The notes under the pieces are model-generated. The model was not told the DNA's origin and made no database searches. It saw only the letters and a list, made by a program, of their open reading frames with translations. The translations under genes were made by a program, and so were the position numbers. Positions 9,291-19,592 of a stretch of 28,722 nucleotides of DNA are shown piece after piece. This DNA comes from a virus (Duplodnaviria; Caudoviricetes): positions 1-28,722 of IMG/VR virus record IMGVR_UViG_3300044305_000997; one strand, given 5' to 3'. Every line of letters starts with the position of its first letter. The stretch's first letter is position 1.

Positions 9291-9626
9291 ATGAGATGTG
9301 TAACGGTATTTGCCCTTTTTGTAGCGGCTGCGATTAATGCGCAAGTTAAAGACGATATTAGTGTAGTGCAGTTTAGTGCAGAGTTTGTTAAATCAAGCGA
9401 AATCTCATTAAACCCTTTTAAGGATTATAATATTCAAACATTATATCTATCAAAAAATCAAAAAATATTCCAAAAAGAAAAAATTACATCTTTACCAACT
9501 ATTATATTATATAATGATGGAGAAGAAGTATTAAAAATTGATGGCGGAATCTCAATGAAACTGCCTGAAGATAGTATAGAGCAAATAAACGAACATATTA
9601 ACAAAATACTAGAAACAAGATTTTAA
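9291..9626 (+). CDS. Secreted thioredoxin-fold protein lacking CXXC
   Basis: Signal peptide ending NA-Q; VVQFSAEF and ITSLPTIILYNDGEEV match the thioredoxin beta1 and cis-Pro regions. Confidence 0.65.
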   Translation: MRCVTVFALFVAAAINAQVKDDISVVQFSAEFVKSSEISLNPFKDYNIQTLYLSKNQKIFQKEKITSLPTIILYNDGEEVLKIDGGISMKLPEDSIEQINEHINKILETRF

Positions 9627-9673
9627 ATTATGGCACGAAGAAAAAAAGTTAAACAATCAAAAGCAAAACAAGT

Positions 9674-10834
9674 ATGGCAATCAATAAAAGACTATTTCAA
9701 AAATTGTTGGGATTCTGTTTGTTCTTATTGGTAATAAACACCAATGCACAAGTAAACGAATTACCAGAAGATAAAACAAAAGAGATAAAAAAAGGATTTA
9801 AAACAAAAAAATTCTTTAATAGTATCTTTAAGTACAGCACTTTCTATGGAGCTTATTCACAAACAAATGCTATTCAAAATAATCAAACATTTTATGTAGC
9901 ACAAGACAATGAGTTAATAGAAACTACACAAAGAACTCCTGCTGATTTTATGACGACTTATGGCTGGAGGAAACTCGCCAACTTTCAATATGAAGATAGA
10001 AATAGATTTTATATTGGAGACGAAAACAATGCCTCCACTAAAAGCAATATAGGTAATGTAAAAGGGCTTGAGTATTTATTTCAATATTCTACAGGCAGAC
10101 AACAAGGGGATGAATTTGAAAACCAACAAGCGTTTATAAGATACTTAGCTAAATGGTGGCTTATAAAAGGAGAATATAAAAAGAATGAACTAGTTGATCT
10201 TAATTATAAAAGTGCTGAAGCTAGAGCAAGATTTGCAATAGGTAAAAAACTATCTTTAAGTTTAGGATTTGCATATAGGACTTATGATAAAGCCTATGGT
10301 CATAATCCAGTTCAATTATATTTAGAGGATAATATGTGGTGGAATCTAGCTTATGATTATGCAGGACATACGGATAACTTATACCAAATGATTAATCCAT
10401 TTACAAGCGAATCAATGGGTTATGATTATCAATGGTTTAATCAAGACGGCGAATTAATAGCAGCTTCAGATGCAGATTATAGAAACGGGGTCTTTCAAAA
10501 TGTAGTTAATGAATATAACGAGGAACAATTATCAATGATTGGAGGCTTTGAACAAATCTCAGCTATCGCTGGGTTAGACTTCTATCATTACAGAAATAAT
10601 TTCTGGCTACATATTTACGGAAACATTTTACCTTATCACGAATTACTTTCAGGAGATGAAAGATACTCTTATGATAATTTTTATGGTAGTAATGATTACA
10701 TAGATTATTCAGCAGGAGGCGTGCTTGGAATAAGAATAACAAAAAATATAGGTCTCTATGGAGAAATAAACCTCCAGAGATATTGGGATAGGTCTATTAA
10801 AACAATTAGAGCTGGTGTAAATATTAAAATATGA
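9674..10834 (+). CDS. Secreted protein, probable outer-membrane beta-barrel
   Basis: Signal peptide ending NA-Q; Tyr/Trp-rich alternating strands (LSLSLGFAYR, IGLYGEINLQ, IRAGVNIKI-COOH). Confidence 0.55.
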   Translation: MAINKRLFQKLLGFCLFLLVINTNAQVNELPEDKTKEIKKGFKTKKFFNSIFKYSTFYGAYSQTNAIQNNQTFYVAQDNELIETTQRTPADFMTTYGWRKLANFQYEDRNRFYIGDENNASTKSNIGNVKGLEYLFQYSTGRQQGDEFENQQAFIRYLAKWWLIKGEYKKNELVDLNYKSAEARARFAIGKKLSLSLGFAYRTYDKAYGHNPVQLYLEDNMWWNLAYDYAGHTDNLYQMINPFTSESMGYDYQWFNQDGELIAASDADYRNGVFQNVVNEYNEEQLSMIGGFEQISAIAGLDFYHYRNNFWLHIYGNILPYHELLSGDERYSYDNFYGSNDYIDYSAGGVLGIRITKNIGLYGEINLQRYWDRSIKTIRAGVNIKI

Positions 10835-15499: not shown

Positions 15500-15507
15500 T
15501 ATATTTG
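15500..15507 (+). promoter_or_regulatory. Bacteroidota -7 promoter element (TATATTTG)
   Basis: Exact TAnnTTTG in the intergenic gap before a run of small genes. Confidence 0.6.
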
Positions 15508-15534
15508 TATTATATTAATACTAAAACAAACAAA

Positions 15535-15810
15535 ATGAGAAAATTAATAGTAAAAAACATGACAAGTACAAATGGAAATATAATTGCTAATCAGTTTAAA
15601 ATTAGAACACCGAAAGGAGTTTATTTTCAAAGCTATGATTATTTAATAGTATTTATAAATAATAAAGGACAAATATTTTTAGATAAATATTGCTGGGATT
15701 ATTCAACTACGACAGGTAAATATAGAAATCAATTTTTAGGTGAAGATATTAAAGAAACACGTAGAAAAATAAGAAGCAAAGAATATAAACTAAAAGACTT
15801 AAATGAATAA
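15535..15810 (+). CDS. Hypothetical early protein
   Basis: ATG 15535 preferred; ANQF, FQSY, WDYSTTTGKYRNQFL. Confidence 0.7.
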   Translation: MRKLIVKNMTSTNGNIIANQFKIRTPKGVYFQSYDYLIVFINNKGQIFLDKYCWDYSTTTGKYRNQFLGEDIKETRRKIRSKEYKLKDLNE

Positions 15811-15815
15811 AACAG

Positions 15816-15938
15816 ATGAAAATAGATAAAATATATTACTGGAATAAAGAATTAAATACTTACTTACCTTGTGTTTGGAATGAAACCTTTGAATGTTATA
15901 CTCCAGACTTACAGAAAAAATTAACTAAAACAATATGA
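15816..15938 (+). CDS. Small hypothetical protein (40 aa)
   Basis: ATGA coupling to the next ORF. Confidence 0.5.
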   Translation: MKIDKIYYWNKELNTYLPCVWNETFECYTPDLQKKLTKTI

Positions 15939-16069
15939 AAAAATTAATTAGAAAATATTTAAAAATTACTTTAGAAGATTTATTAATAGGATTATTTTTA
16001 ATAATAGTATTATTCTTTGGAACTTTATTTTTTCTAAAGTTAGAATATTTAATTGATCTAGTATTATGA
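15935..16069 (+). CDS. Small membrane protein (44 aa)
   Basis: ATGA overlaps at both ends; one hydrophobic helix. Confidence 0.55.
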   Translation: MKKLIRKYLKITLEDLLIGLFLIIVLFFGTLFFLKLEYLIDLVL

Positions 16070-16278
16070 AAAGAGAAGATCAAAAATTATTATTCCTTTG
16101 CTTATTTTTAATTATAGCAGCAATTAGTATAGTATCATACGAACTAGGAAAAAAACATACTAAAGAAAAACCTCCACAAATAATAGTTGAGTATATAGAT
16201 GACAGGTGCTTATGCGTTAAGTGTGGTAAGCGAGTAAACTTTCAGGAGGTACAATACTTAATACAGGAAATAAAATGA
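16066..16278 (+). CDS. Membrane-anchored protein with CxCxxC
   Basis: N-terminal TM segment; CLCVKCG. Confidence 0.55.
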   Translation: MKREDQKLLFLCLFLIIAAISIVSYELGKKHTKEKPPQIIVEYIDDRCLCVKCGKRVNFQEVQYLIQEIK

Positions 16279-16523
16279 GAAATCTAGGACAGCTCCAGTA
16301 CACTACAGACATGGACTTGGTTCTTAATTTAATTAAGGACAATGACAAGTATAAGGATTTAGAAACACCATTAATTAATATATTCTTTTATGTAAATCAA
16401 TTAGAGTTAGAGCGCAGGTCTTTTGATAATGTCATTGATAAATTAAGAGGAGATAAACTTAGAGCTATTAAACGAGCAAGGAGGGTAGAAGAACAATTAA
16501 ATGAAAAAAAGAAAATTAAATAG
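16275..16523 (+). CDS. Hypothetical coiled-coil protein
   Basis: ATGA overlap; DKLRAIKRAR. Confidence 0.6.
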   Translation: MRNLGQLQYTTDMDLVLNLIKDNDKYKDLETPLINIFFYVNQLELERRSFDNVIDKLRGDKLRAIKRARRVEEQLNEKKKIK

Positions 16524-16635
16524 CAAAAATCCGAAGTATTGGAAGGAGGATAAAAAACAAGAGCCAATAATAAAGGAGAGAAAATTAATAACAAGTACGC
16601 CTAAAATAAAAGCGTATGCTACATTTTTAAAATGA
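16501..16635 (+). CDS. Small basic protein (44 aa)
   Basis: MKKRKLNSKNPKYW...; ATGA coupling downstream. Confidence 0.55.
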   Translation: MKKRKLNSKNPKYWKEDKKQEPIIKERKLITSTPKIKAYATFLK

Positions 16636-16790
16636 ACTATATAGAAACTATATTAATAATTTTTTGTATTCCTCTTTCTTTTTTATTTCATTTAGTAGTT
16701 TATGCTAATTATTGGAAACAAAAAATATTAACCCGCATCATAGTAGGAATAATAATAGTTTTGTTCCCTTTTTTAATTATATTAATATGA
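16632..16790 (+). CDS. Small two-TM membrane protein (52 aa)
   Basis: ATGA overlaps at both ends; two hydrophobic stretches. Confidence 0.55.
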   Translation: MNYIETILIIFCIPLSFLFHLVVYANYWKQKILTRIIVGIIIVLFPFLIILI

Positions 16791-17071
16791 AAATAAAAAA
16801 AGAAAATATTTTACTAAAAGCTAATGAAATAATATTTGGCAGAAAAGAAGAAAAGCAAAGGCAATATGGGCCTATAGATGAATCTATTAGTAAAGCCGCT
16901 AGAATGGCTTCAGAAATGTGTAATAAAGAAATAACCACTGAAGATTTTTATAAATGCGTAATAGCACTTAAAATGAGCAGGATGGCTTATAATACTAAAA
17001 AGGACACAATGTTAGATTGTGTTGGATATATTTCTGCTTTAGATTCTTATAAAAACGGGGGGTATGAATAA
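16787..17071 (+). CDS. DUF6378-like all-alpha protein (nucleotide-metabolism associated)
   Basis: IL..A.EII.G......YG, ALKMSR, D..LD..GY pattern; start moved to ATG 16787. Confidence 0.65.
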   Translation: MKIKKENILLKANEIIFGRKEEKQRQYGPIDESISKAARMASEMCNKEITTEDFYKCVIALKMSRMAYNTKKDTMLDCVGYISALDSYKNGGYE

Positions 17072-17819
17072 ATTTGAAAAAAGATATAAAAAATTATTAT
17101 TTAATTGTTTATATTCTGGAAATTTAACAGAGAATAGAACGGCTACAAAAACTTATAAGTTATTTAATAAAACTTTTAATATAAATTTAAATAAAGGGTT
17201 TCCAATAATAACAGGGAAAAAAGTATTTTTTAATAAAGCTTTAGCAGAATTTAAATGGATATATGAAGGAAGAACAGATTTAAAATATTTACATAATTAT
17301 AATATATATTGGTGGGATCAGTTTGCAAATAATAATAAATTAGGAAAAATATATGGACATCAAATAAGAAATTTTAATAATTCAATTGACCAAATAGAAT
17401 ATGTCAAAAAAGAAATATTAAATAATTCGAGGAGAGCTATAATTACATTATGGAATCCATCTGACCTACAAGATCAATCATTGCCATGTTGTTATACTCA
17501 TCTTAATTTTGTAAGAGTTAAAAATAAATTAAATATGATTATTTTTTTTAGAAGCTCAGATTTATTTTTAGGATTACCTTATGATATAATTTTTGCAGCA
17601 CTTTTTTTAAATACAATAGCAAAAGAAATTAAATTAATTCCAAACATCCTAGGAATAAATATAGCGGATGCTCATATATATGAATCGCATAAAAACCAAG
17701 TAATTAAATATCTTAATAATTCAATATATAAATTGCCGTCTTTAGAAGGAGAATATAATAATTATAATTTAAAAAACTATATAAGTAATAACTATATAAA
17801 AGCAGATTTAGTATTATGA
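17064..17819 (+). CDS. Thymidylate synthase superfamily protein (Asn-to-Asp specificity variant)
   Basis: NRT, EFKW, LGKIYGHQIR, SRRAI, LPCC, RSSDLFLGLPYD, HIY. Confidence 0.9.
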   Translation: MNKFEKRYKKLLFNCLYSGNLTENRTATKTYKLFNKTFNINLNKGFPIITGKKVFFNKALAEFKWIYEGRTDLKYLHNYNIYWWDQFANNNKLGKIYGHQIRNFNNSIDQIEYVKKEILNNSRRAIITLWNPSDLQDQSLPCCYTHLNFVRVKNKLNMIIFFRSSDLFLGLPYDIIFAALFLNTIAKEIKLIPNILGINIADAHIYESHKNQVIKYLNNSIYKLPSLEGEYNNYNLKNYISNNYIKADLVL

Positions 17820-18112
17820 ATTATTTTAATAAAATACGAGAATGGGCAAAGCTTAAAAATATATTAGACAAAGGAAATATTAAAACTCAATATATAAAAT
17901 TACAAGAAGAATCAGGAGAACTGGCTGAAGCAATATTAACCAATAATAAAAAAGAAATAAAAGACGCTGTAGGGGATATGATAGTAGTGTTAACATCATT
18001 AAGTTATTTTGGAGGATTTTCAATTGAAGAAGCAATTGAATCAGCTTATAGTGAAATTAAAAATAGAAAAGGTAAAATAATTAATAATACATTTGTAAAA
18101 AATAAAGAATGA
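17816..18112 (+). CDS. MazG-like nucleotide pyrophosphohydrolase
   Basis: KLQEESGELAEA...KDAVGD; AYSEIKNRKG. Confidence 0.85.
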   Translation: MNYFNKIREWAKLKNILDKGNIKTQYIKLQEESGELAEAILTNNKKEIKDAVGDMIVVLTSLSYFGGFSIEEAIESAYSEIKNRKGKIINNTFVKNKE

Positions 18113-19134
18113 GAATAGTAGCTAAAAAACCATCATGGAAACATATCACTTTTAGAACACCTAAAATAAATTTTAACAACTGGGCAAAAAACGGAATAAC
18201 AATAAGAATAAAAGATAAAGAATATATTTTTAAAGATCCCAACGAAATCCATCAATTAAATGTATGTATAAATCCTTCATTCCACGGCAACGATTCTTGT
18301 TATATAACAATCCCTGAATTAAAAAGTATATATAAAAAAAGTAAAAGAAAAAATACAATACAATTATTAAATGGTAAATTATATGATAAAAAAGAATTAT
18401 TAAATAAAATGTATGATGATGGTTTTTATTATGGAGAATTAGGAAAACACGCTTTAAGTTCTTCTGCAATTAAATATTTATTAGATTCTCCTAAAAGTTA
18501 TGCAAGGAGTTTAAATTTTTCTACAGATTCATCAGCTTTTAAAATGGGTAGATTAATACACCTAGCAGCATTAGAGCCTGAAAAAATAGAATCACTATGT
18601 CATATAGTAGAGGTACAATCCGCTGTAACAAAAGCATATAAAGATAAAGTAAAAGAAGTTGGAAGTAATCAGTTTGTATTTACTAGGAAAGAATATGATA
18701 AAGCAATGTATGTAGTAGATGCTTTATTACAAAACGATATATGGCAAGAGCTTACTAGAGATGCTTCTTTTGAAATACCGGCTTTTGATATTATTAATGG
18801 TTATCCATTTAGAGCGAAAGCAGATATACTAGGGAATGATTATATGGCTGACCTGAAAACATGTTCCGATTTAAAAGCGTTCCCTTATTCAGCTCGAAAA
18901 TATAATTATGACGTACAAGTTTACTTGTATTGTTCTATATTTAAAGTACCTTATGATAAATTTTTCTTTTTTGCAATTGATAAGTCAACAGGGGATTTAG
19001 GCTATTACGATGTTAGTAAAGACTTTTATAATTCAGGAAAAGACAAAGTAGAGTATGCATTAAAAATATATGAAACATATTTTGTAAAACAAGATCAACA
19101 ATTAAACGAATATATAATTAAAGGTACATTATGA
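18109..19134 (+). CDS. RecE/exonuclease VIII-like PD-(D/E)XK nuclease with N-terminal extension
   Basis: LSSSAIK, G...H...LEP, KAD, DLKT, Y..Q...Y. Confidence 0.8.
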   Translation: MRIVAKKPSWKHITFRTPKINFNNWAKNGITIRIKDKEYIFKDPNEIHQLNVCINPSFHGNDSCYITIPELKSIYKKSKRKNTIQLLNGKLYDKKELLNKMYDDGFYYGELGKHALSSSAIKYLLDSPKSYARSLNFSTDSSAFKMGRLIHLAALEPEKIESLCHIVEVQSAVTKAYKDKVKEVGSNQFVFTRKEYDKAMYVVDALLQNDIWQELTRDASFEIPAFDIINGYPFRAKADILGNDYMADLKTCSDLKAFPYSARKYNYDVQVYLYCSIFKVPYDKFFFFAIDKSTGDLGYYDVSKDFYNSGKDKVEYALKIYETYFVKQDQQLNEYIIKGTL

Positions 19135-19526
19135 TAAAAGCAAAACAAATAGCCGAATACTTAACAGATATATCAGGGGTAAATGTTTTTGAGAATAGCA
19201 GGAAACGAGCTAACGTAGAAACAAGAAGCCTATTAACCTTTATATTAAGAAACCAATTTAGCATGGGTTATCACGATATAAAAAAATTCTATGAGTCTAA
19301 TGACAAAGATTATGACCATGCAACAGCAATATATAGTTATAAAAGTTTTGAAACGCATAGAAAATATAATCCTAAATTAAATAAGTATTTAGACTTAGTG
19401 CTTCTTAAATTAAAAGATAAATCAAAATTACAAAAAGCATTAATCAATCATATAGTTGATAATACACTTAAAGGGGATTTAAAGAAAGTATTAAAATTAG
19501 TAGATAGCCTACCTATAAATGAATAG
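19131..19526 (+). CDS. DNA-binding protein with DnaA C-terminal-like HTH
   Basis: SRKR..VE.R and DHATAIYS resemble the DnaA domain IV motif DHTTV. Confidence 0.6.
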   Translation: MIKAKQIAEYLTDISGVNVFENSRKRANVETRSLLTFILRNQFSMGYHDIKKFYESNDKDYDHATAIYSYKSFETHRKYNPKLNKYLDLVLLKLKDKSKLQKALINHIVDNTLKGDLKKVLKLVDSLPINE

Positions 19527-19540
19527 AACAACATAAGGCA

Positions 19541-19565
19541 CAAAAAAGATTATTCTAGCGTTATA
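19541..19565 (+). promoter_or_regulatory. Putative late promoter CAAA-N14-CGTTATA upstream of the terminase genes
   Basis: Repeated motif with identical spacing. Confidence 0.7.
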
Positions 19566-19567
19566 TA

Positions 19568-19581
19568 ATTGATTAATCAAT
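19568..19581. repeat. Perfect 14 bp palindrome ATTGATTAATCAAT
   Basis: Read directly from the sequence; lies between the promoter and the terS ATG. Confidence 0.85.
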
Positions 19582-19592
19582 CTTTTTCAATT

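Follow-up and report, generated by a model that had tools for sequence, protein, structure and literature searches.

The locus described here raises the question which nucleotide is the substrate of a phage-encoded thymidylate synthase (TS) homologue, in which an aspartate takes the place of Asn177 of E. coli ThyA, and whether its product ends up in the DNA of the phage. The original prediction, made from the sequence alone, had assumed that the enzyme yields 5-methyl- or 5-hydroxymethyl-dCMP. Based on the analysis presented below, the gene belongs to an accessory cassette, whose ThyA-like enzyme is predicted to convert dCMP to 5-methyl-dCMP; it is probable that the phage DNA thereby receives 5-methylcytosine, which would blunt the restriction enzymes of the host.

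The phage and its locus

The window, i.e. the whole stretch of DNA that was analysed, comprises an entire virus record of 28,722 bases, which is linear and 92% complete. All genes lie on one strand and comprise head, tail and lysis genes, a short replication module (NinG, SSB, a DnaB-like helicase, a sigma-like protein and exonuclease VIII) and the terminase. The missing part falls within the head module, where relatives show gaps of about 0.2-1.4 kb. Since the nearest cultured terminases are those of the Nonlabens phages P12024L/S (56%), a host from the Flavobacteriia is likely. The stretch is present in 20 run rows from 17 studies, 9 of these rows being a possible source of the record itself, and the labels are nearly all seawater or marine. 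Contigs from four other runs tile the region, one of them covering 15917-18098 and another 17552-19588. The features of the cassette are as follows:

16787..17071, + strand: DUF6378 protein, 94 aa, four helices (PF19905, E 3.7e-14); shares 8 nt with the start of TS
17064..17819, + strand: ThyA-family enzyme, 251 aa, predicted dCMP C5-methyltransferase (PF00303, E 1e-57; residues compared with those of E. coli ThyA, Xp12 TS and T4 gp42)
17481..17495, + strand: Leu140-Pro-Cys-Cys143-Tyr144 (E. coli L143...C146, H147), with the catalytic Cys, the hydrophobic residue tied to methyl products, and the His replaced
17550..17585, + strand: RSSDLFLGLPYD, with Asp166 (E. coli D169, kept) and Asp174 (N177D), both in 120/120 best-listed homologues
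17816..18112, + strand: MazG-family NTP pyrophosphohydrolase, 98 aa, predicted dCTPase (PF03819, E 1.3e-8); ATGA overlap with the TS stop
18109..18372, + strand: N-terminal extension, about 88 aa long, of an exonuclease VIII-like protein (gene 18109-19134); probable cassette-linked domain, similar to a PD-(D/E)XK nuclease fold over the C-terminal half of that fold

DUF6378, TS, MazG and the next gene thus overlap successively at their start and stop codons, and the Pfam matches bear out the earlier assignment of the two flanking genes as DUF6378-like and MazG-like. Promoter and terminator scans gave results at chance level only, and nothing was matched by PADLOC. Outside the cassette, a 101-aa ORF at 15505-15810 is absent from contigs of two other runs, in which 296 bases are replaced by 11, and represents a second small optional gene. 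Between tail fibre and endolysin (9291-10834), a thioredoxin-like gene of 111 aa and a gene of 386 aa were observed, the latter with a signal-peptide-like start and without a Pfam family.

Residues and predicted product of the TS homologue

The residues named in the original prediction, i.e. Cys143, Tyr144 and Asp174 (GAT, 17583-17585) with the spacing of 31 residues, are all present and align with C146, H147 and N177 of E. coli ThyA. R21, E58, W80, Y94, R126, R127, C146, R166, S167, D169, H207 and Y209 of ThyA, among them the catalytic Cys and the Arg/Ser residues that bind the phosphate, are kept, and the canonical Asn177, His147 and Gln165 are replaced by Asp, Tyr and Phe. Among the 120 best-listed of 351 homologues found (57-98% identity), Asp174 and the entire GLPYD occur in 120/120, and C143, R163, S164, S165, D166 and G170-D174 are invariant. 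In the same 120, position 144 (E. coli H147) is Tyr in 95 and Phe in 25, position 162 (Q165) is always Phe, and position 140 (L143) is Leu in 116 and Ile in 4. Because Asp174 is invariant in this set and independent seawater contigs span the genes, it reflects neither chance nor a sequencing error. A wider profile-free search listed 150 representatives, in which the motif ends in Asp in 62 and in Asn in 82 and was unread in 6; these figures are approximate, since they come from a regular expression that assigned Asp wrongly at least once. Asp-type relatives of ThyA therefore appear to be common. A single-protein pattern search, which detects close relatives only, confirmed no homologue in genome contigs.

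According to PMC13326640 and PMC8670742, N177D shifts the preference of ThyA to dCMP. PMC13326640 further states that methyl products go with Leu143 and hydroxymethyl products with Asp/Glu143, 5-hydroxy-dCMP synthases being recognised by D169N. In PMC8670742, TS genes on contigs shown by experiment to be modified are told apart best by positions 177 and 147. By E. coli numbering, the window enzyme comprises L143, D169 and D177, and among the 120 best-listed homologues none carries an acidic residue at 143 and all keep Asp169. L143 and D169 thus point to a methyl rather than a hydroxymethyl or hydroxyl product, and the best reading of the enzyme is a predicted 5-methyl-dCMP synthase. Of the two products originally proposed, 5-methyl-dCMP is hence retained as the prediction, and 5-hydroxymethyl-dCMP is disfavoured.

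The closest known counterpart is the TS of Xanthomonas phage Xp12, for which the formation of 5mdC is described in a preprint (10.1101/2024.12.05.627091). The modules of Xp12 and of Pseudomonas phage PaMx74 likewise comprise a ThyA-length enzyme with RSSDLFxGLPYD, N177D, D169 and a residue other than His at 147, adjoined by an all-alpha NTP pyrophosphohydrolase. W83F, C168S, F176Y, N177D and a hydrophobic residue at Q165 are common to the window TS and the Xp12 TS, and the Xp12 motif RSSDLFVGLPYD differs from that of the window in one residue. However, the two enzymes are only 28% identical, and Xp12 encodes a dCMP deaminase, a DHFR and its own PolA and lacks DUF6378, whereas the reverse holds true for this phage. 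Moreover, complete substitution is shown for Xp12, while for this phage any substitution is a prediction. The window TS shares the sequence features of the Xp12 5-methyl-dCMP synthase, within a module that is not the full Xp12 module.

The closest annotated TS is that of the uvMED autographivirus AP013540, which is 53% identical and shares LPCCY and GLPYD. It lies in an uncharacterised, Xp12-like block of PRA-PH, dTMP kinase, PYD-type TS, dCMP deaminase, primase-helicase and PolA, of which kinase, deaminase and polymerase are absent from the window phage. With the T4 pathway (gp42, the dCTPase gp56, the kinase gp1 and the polymerase gp43), the cassette has in common an Asp177 enzyme of the TS family and a predicted dCTPase, and gp42-like enzymes fill the same slot in close relatives (88% identical terminase). 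In contrast, gp42 comprises Asp at 143 instead of the Leu140 of the window and is 19% identical, and no P-loop kinase, polymerase or glycosyltransferase was found in the window phage. The 5-hydroxy-dCMP synthases RB69 gp48 and DLP3 gp80 are also N177D homologues of TS acting on dCMP, but require D169N and L143E, whereas the window enzyme has D169 and L143.

Two other readings of the enzyme have to be weighed against these data. Its product from dCMP could be 5-hydroxymethyl-dCMP or another C5 derivative, since the residue rules are correlations, Xp12 itself shows Asn at 143 in the alignment where the window has Leu, and the Tyr/Phe at position 147 of the window family matches neither Xp12 (Pro) nor T4 (Thr). 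Leu/Ile143 and Asp169 in 120/120 of the best-listed homologues nevertheless oppose the signatures of hydroxymethylases (D/E143) and hydroxylases (N169), and the full ThyA length with kept folate-site residues is unlike the shorter hydroxymethylase-type enzymes of the slot, so that this reading is considered improbable. Still a little less credit is given to a canonical thymidylate synthase that uses dUMP and whose pocket has drifted, with MazG as a dUTPase feeding it. The pairing of a TS with a dUTP-hydrolysing enzyme is common in phages, the best sequence matches in the PDB are canonical TS (E 2e-37), and the TIGR03284 thym_sym cut-off is passed. Against it stand the dCMP preference conferred by N177D, the replacement of the pyrimidine-facing H147 and Q165 in 120/120 as well, and the match of the motif to Xp12.

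Partner genes and the swappable slot

For the comparison of genomes, 18 cassette-less relatives were set against 20 carriers of a TS, of which 13 are PYD-type, this genome among them, and 7 hydroxymethylase-type; one carrier was covered over 39 of 44 kb. The comparison leaves aside cassette-less records of 20-21 kb (five) and 53 kb (one), DUF6378 records with a completeness of 20-66% (four) and a single record that has no TS. None of the 18 cassette-less genomes contains TS, DUF6378, MazG or KYG, as we call a further small helical protein, which carries an EExxD motif. The order DUF6378-TS-MazG was found in 48 of 52 IMG/VR loci, while two of the others carry KYG in the place of DUF6378 and two are cut by contig ends. 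Among 25 long records chosen by terminase or capsid, only one contains any PF00303 gene, and in this record and other relatives with 71-88% identical terminase the same slot is occupied by other Asp177 enzymes. In one form this is a short T4-gp42-like enzyme with D143 and D177, in the other a different TS, also with Asp177, and after it a gene resembling asparagine synthetase. The cassette is thus an accessory block. A search with DUF6378 resulted in 80 loci, 74 with a complete TS nearby and the other 6 ending near the DUF6378 gene. Since Asp177 is present in 74/74 of these TS (55 methylase-like, 19 hydroxymethylase-like), this DUF6378 subfamily serves, together with MazG, as a frame for enzymes of the cytosine type. 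A gp42-like enzyme without DUF6378 was observed in twenty larger phages (60-96 kb), and in the 5 examined KYG lies beside MazG. A literature search, mostly outside subscription journals, revealed no paper on this cassette.

Several further arrangements were observed in related loci. The KYG protein ('KYG...QEELMD', without a Pfam family; L227:6416-6700, L098:5377-5580, L034/L035) adjoins TS/MazG wherever DUF6378 is missing, and in some loci stands alongside it. In the same slot, L072:3551-5573 comprises a divergent Asp177 TS (VRVPCT...RSCDIVRHFKND, Arg at 143) and then a 441-aa asparagine-synthetase/glutamine-amidotransferase gene, a pair which is a candidate for an undescribed amino-type cytosine modification. 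At L229:2309-5001, three genes (315, about 300 and about 297 aa) are inserted between DUF6378 and TS, and the same insert is found in L251, L254, L256, L259, L261, L262, L269 and L283, the hosts of the insert being hydroxymethylase-type phages of about 30 kb. One of the genes matches a PHROG annotated as threonine dehydratase (PLP fold) and the other two belong to no named family; the insert is a candidate for the hypermodification of hydroxymethylcytosine. In larger phages (L356-L370), DUF6378, dUTPase and dCMP deaminase lie upstream of a TS in which Asp177 is combined with the unusual motif YDTPCND.

The original prediction had described both neighbours as pyrophosphohydrolase-like proteins that supply dCMP or deplete dCTP; of the two, only MazG shows an intact pyrophosphatase motif. 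In MazG, the acidic metal-binding helices EExxE ... DxxxD are present, and E31, E32, E35, D50 and D54 are kept in 137-138 of 138 distinct relatives; its specificity for dCTP is predicted from the context. The protein also matches PRA-PH. In the MetaGPA table of PMC8670742, PRA-PH is enriched in modified contigs, while PF03819 MazG is not (5 vs. 226, corrected p 1), the latter counting against the 5-methylcytosine reading.

DUF6378 is more strongly conserved than TS. Its homologues are 53-86% identical, near-identical copies aside, and share K23, R25, Y27, G28, K62, R65, K71, D73, D77 and Y81, with D73 and D77 as the only invariant acids; the ExxE motif of MazG is absent. The model (pLDDT 87) comprises four helices, and six of the top seven rows in VIA are MazG/HisE-type or related (Z 5.1-6.0), with an rmsd of 3.3-5.1 over 61-73 residues, which lies in the range of common helical arrangements. 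The fold is therefore only weakly MazG/HisE-like. Foldseek found nothing in the PDB at E<=0.001, DUF6378 and unnamed proteins in BFVD, and DUF6378 clusters only in the Atlas; a homodimer prediction scored 0.27 against a mark of 0.42. Some other DUF6378 genes are located away from any TS. The protein likely acts in nucleotide handling, where a kinase and a second phosphohydrolase cannot be distinguished. A relation to T7 gp1.7/DUF3310 found no support, as hhalign gave probabilities of 0.6% and 0.1% with shallow profiles. Nor was a mutual exclusion supported, in which DUF6378 substitutes for a P-loop kinase: five large hydroxymethylase-type phages without DUF6378 also show no P-loop kinase, and Microbacterium phage Albright has a DUF6378 gene together with a thymidylate kinase.

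As stated in the original prediction, no phage polymerase or kinase is visible; none was found among 26 ORFs of the window (21 scanned with Pfam, 5 further long ones with PHROGs). The same scans of this 92% complete record gave no match for DHFR, and among ORFs of up to 330 aa only the helicase shows a Walker A motif in its N-terminal part. A Walker A scan revealed no P-loop kinase in the 20 carriers or 5 large phages, and Pfam scans covering 27 ORFs in a complete carrier and 44 in a large phage likewise yielded none; among the 27 of 42 ORFs scanned in the complete carrier G027, deaminase, DHFR and polymerase were not found either. In PMC13326640, a TS homologue expressed in E. coli without a phage kinase led to no more than trace incorporation, which counts against the 5-methylcytosine reading. 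In the preprint (10.1101/2024.12.05.627091), five of seven Asp-type TS formed 5mdC and two gave none, a further point against it; T4 gp1 was co-expressed in every 5mdC test, and 5hmdCTP was incorporated by the E. coli polymerase.

The cassette probably reaches into the first 88 or so codons of the next gene as a fourth part. The extension of the exonuclease occurs in 4 carriers and in 0/18 cassette-less genomes. Of 185 loci that contain both TS and MazG, redundant fetches counted, 166 have a nuclease-fold element. It takes three forms, which never occur together in one locus, nor at all in any of the 18 cassette-less genomes. In 118 loci, a domain of about 80 aa lies within a longer MazG, usually behind an N-terminal region that is GIY-YIG-like by eye and by PF13455 (E 0.0035); in 27, MazG is directly followed by a protein of 140 aa that shows PD-(D/E)XK-like motifs; in 21, including the window, the exonuclease is extended; and 19 show none of these forms. 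The 140-aa protein and the MazG-fusion domain are linked with E 3e-5 (probability 73%). For the window extension the corresponding profile link (E 0.0026) was rejected, because a control, one of four, reached E 0.0022; extension and domain do align by motif. The model of the extension, from an alignment mixed with the MazG-fusion domain, has a pLDDT of 85, and its likeness to the C-terminal half of known nucleases has weak scores (VIA Z 5.2 for PvuII and 4.5 for NhoI, Foldseek E 0.019 for Hjc). As the catalytic half is missing here, steering the exonuclease is the most that the extension could do.

Genome-level signs of a probable DNA modification

C5 methyltransferases (PF00145) were found in 7/18 cassette-less genomes but in 0/20 carriers, and N6/N4 methyltransferases (PF01555, over the cut-off) in 7/18 compared to 1/20. 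Either type occurs in 13/18 compared to 1/20 (Fisher p 2e-5, which overstates independence due to the kinship of the genomes), and in records at least 89% complete in 9/11 compared to 1/13. One carrier has a Dam-type gene outside both families. Just before the small terminase, the complete cassette-less sister genome G006 (L379:9418-10403) encodes a C5 methyltransferase together with a protein of 120 aa that resembles, by eye, a dATP/dGTP diphosphohydrolase (DUF5664).

C/G palindromes are less avoided in the carriers, with observed/expected ratios of 0.56 compared to 0.12 in cassette-less genomes for CGCG (p 4e-5, to be read with the same kinship), 0.39 compared to 0.11 for GGCC and 0.41 compared to 0.14 for CCGG, three sites that were picked after inspection of the data. 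Among 16 palindromic 4-mers, CGCG and GGCC passed the Bonferroni threshold; CCGG, ACGT and CATG showed the same direction, and palindromes of A/T only did not differ. Taken together, the 12 palindromic 4-mers that contain C also showed no difference (p 0.39), which counts against the 5-methylcytosine reading. Relative to non-palindromic control words, the three sites amount to 0.04 in non-carriers, a median of 0.23 in PYD carriers (0.20 in this genome), 0.44 in small and 0.67 in large hydroxymethylase-type phages. In a terminase tree of 34 rows the carrier label changes at least 7 times, and in three of four neighbourhoods the pooled counts follow the trend (carriers 8 and 10 vs. 0-2; 27 and 21 vs. 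1-2; 40 vs. 1-2), while the fourth is opposite (5 and 1 vs. 12). Altogether, the avoidance of C/G sites is partly relaxed in the carriers, as would be expected of a role against restriction that is either incomplete or of recent origin. The predicted specificity for cytosine is supported by the invariance of Asp174, the motif nearly identical to Xp12, the exclusion of methyltransferases and the weaker avoidance of C/G palindromes.

In terms of composition, the cassette had been described as especially AT-rich. Its GC content of 23.4% is indeed lower than the 30.6% of the genome, with only 6 of 274 same-size segments lower, but this is partly regional, as the surrounding module (12.0-19.6 kb) itself has 25.8%. 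The TS gene is richer in AT than its own genome in 13/13 PYD-type carriers. A generally lower GC content of carriers was rejected (p 0.10 with all 20), which again counts against the 5-methylcytosine reading; a p of 0.006 resulted only when four distant carriers were omitted and the TS-less G049 was counted as a carrier. CpG depletion did not differ between carriers and cassette-less genomes. The terminase is shuffled in this group: G018, G019, G026 and G034 have 78-86% capsid identity to the window, with a terminase identity of only 28-29%.

As a further explanation, 5-methyl-dCMP could be a detour to thymidylate, a host deaminase converting it or its triphosphate to dTMP/dTTP and leaving the phage DNA largely unmodified. 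Xp12 obtains T by deaminating 5mdCTP, as described in the preprint (10.1101/2024.12.05.627091), the genome is 69% AT, and a kinase for the modified nucleotide is not visible. However, this genome has no PF00383 deaminase and only 1/20 carriers has one, the slot also houses hydroxymethylase-type enzymes, which are unable to yield T, and the exclusion of methyltransferases and the weaker site avoidance would be left unexplained. The detour is therefore regarded as rather doubtful.

For the preferred reading, the incorporation of 5-methylcytosine, the following course is proposed. MazG would hydrolyse dCTP to dCMP, as suggested by its intact motif and by T4 gp56, and would thereby provide the substrate and thin the competing pool. 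The TS homologue would methylate C5 with methylene-THF, in line with L143, D169, N177D and the match to Xp12, and the folate would be recycled by the DHFR of the host. A host kinase or DUF6378 may phosphorylate 5-methyl-dCMP, and the host DNA polymerase would incorporate the modified nucleotide, for which the use of 5hmdCTP in E. coli is a precedent. Cytosine substitution may be partial, and the linked nuclease-fold part may, speculatively, act on unmodified DNA.

T4 endonuclease II is a GIY-YIG enzyme that cuts cytosine-containing DNA. A more far-reaching version, to which we assign a small probability, would be a four-part, polymerase-independent module to mark self and cut non-self, for which small marine phages exchange DNA methyltransferases and vice versa: TS would modify dCMP at C5, MazG remove dCTP, DUF6378 act on the modified nucleotide as an undescribed, activating non-P-loop kinase, and the GIY-YIG/PD-(D/E)XK part destroy cytosine-containing DNA of the host or of rival phages.

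The principle of modifying cytosine at the precursor level against restriction is already published. If the incorporation of 5-methylcytosine is true, precursor-level synthesis of this base would extend to widespread marine phages of about 30 kb that rely on the host polymerase, and their near-sister genomes would represent a natural either/or of site-specific methyltransferases and global base modification. The phosphorylation of a modified nucleotide without a recognisable kinase is the concrete question that would be raised, and the cassette gives testable handles on DUF6378 and on the nuclease-fold element.
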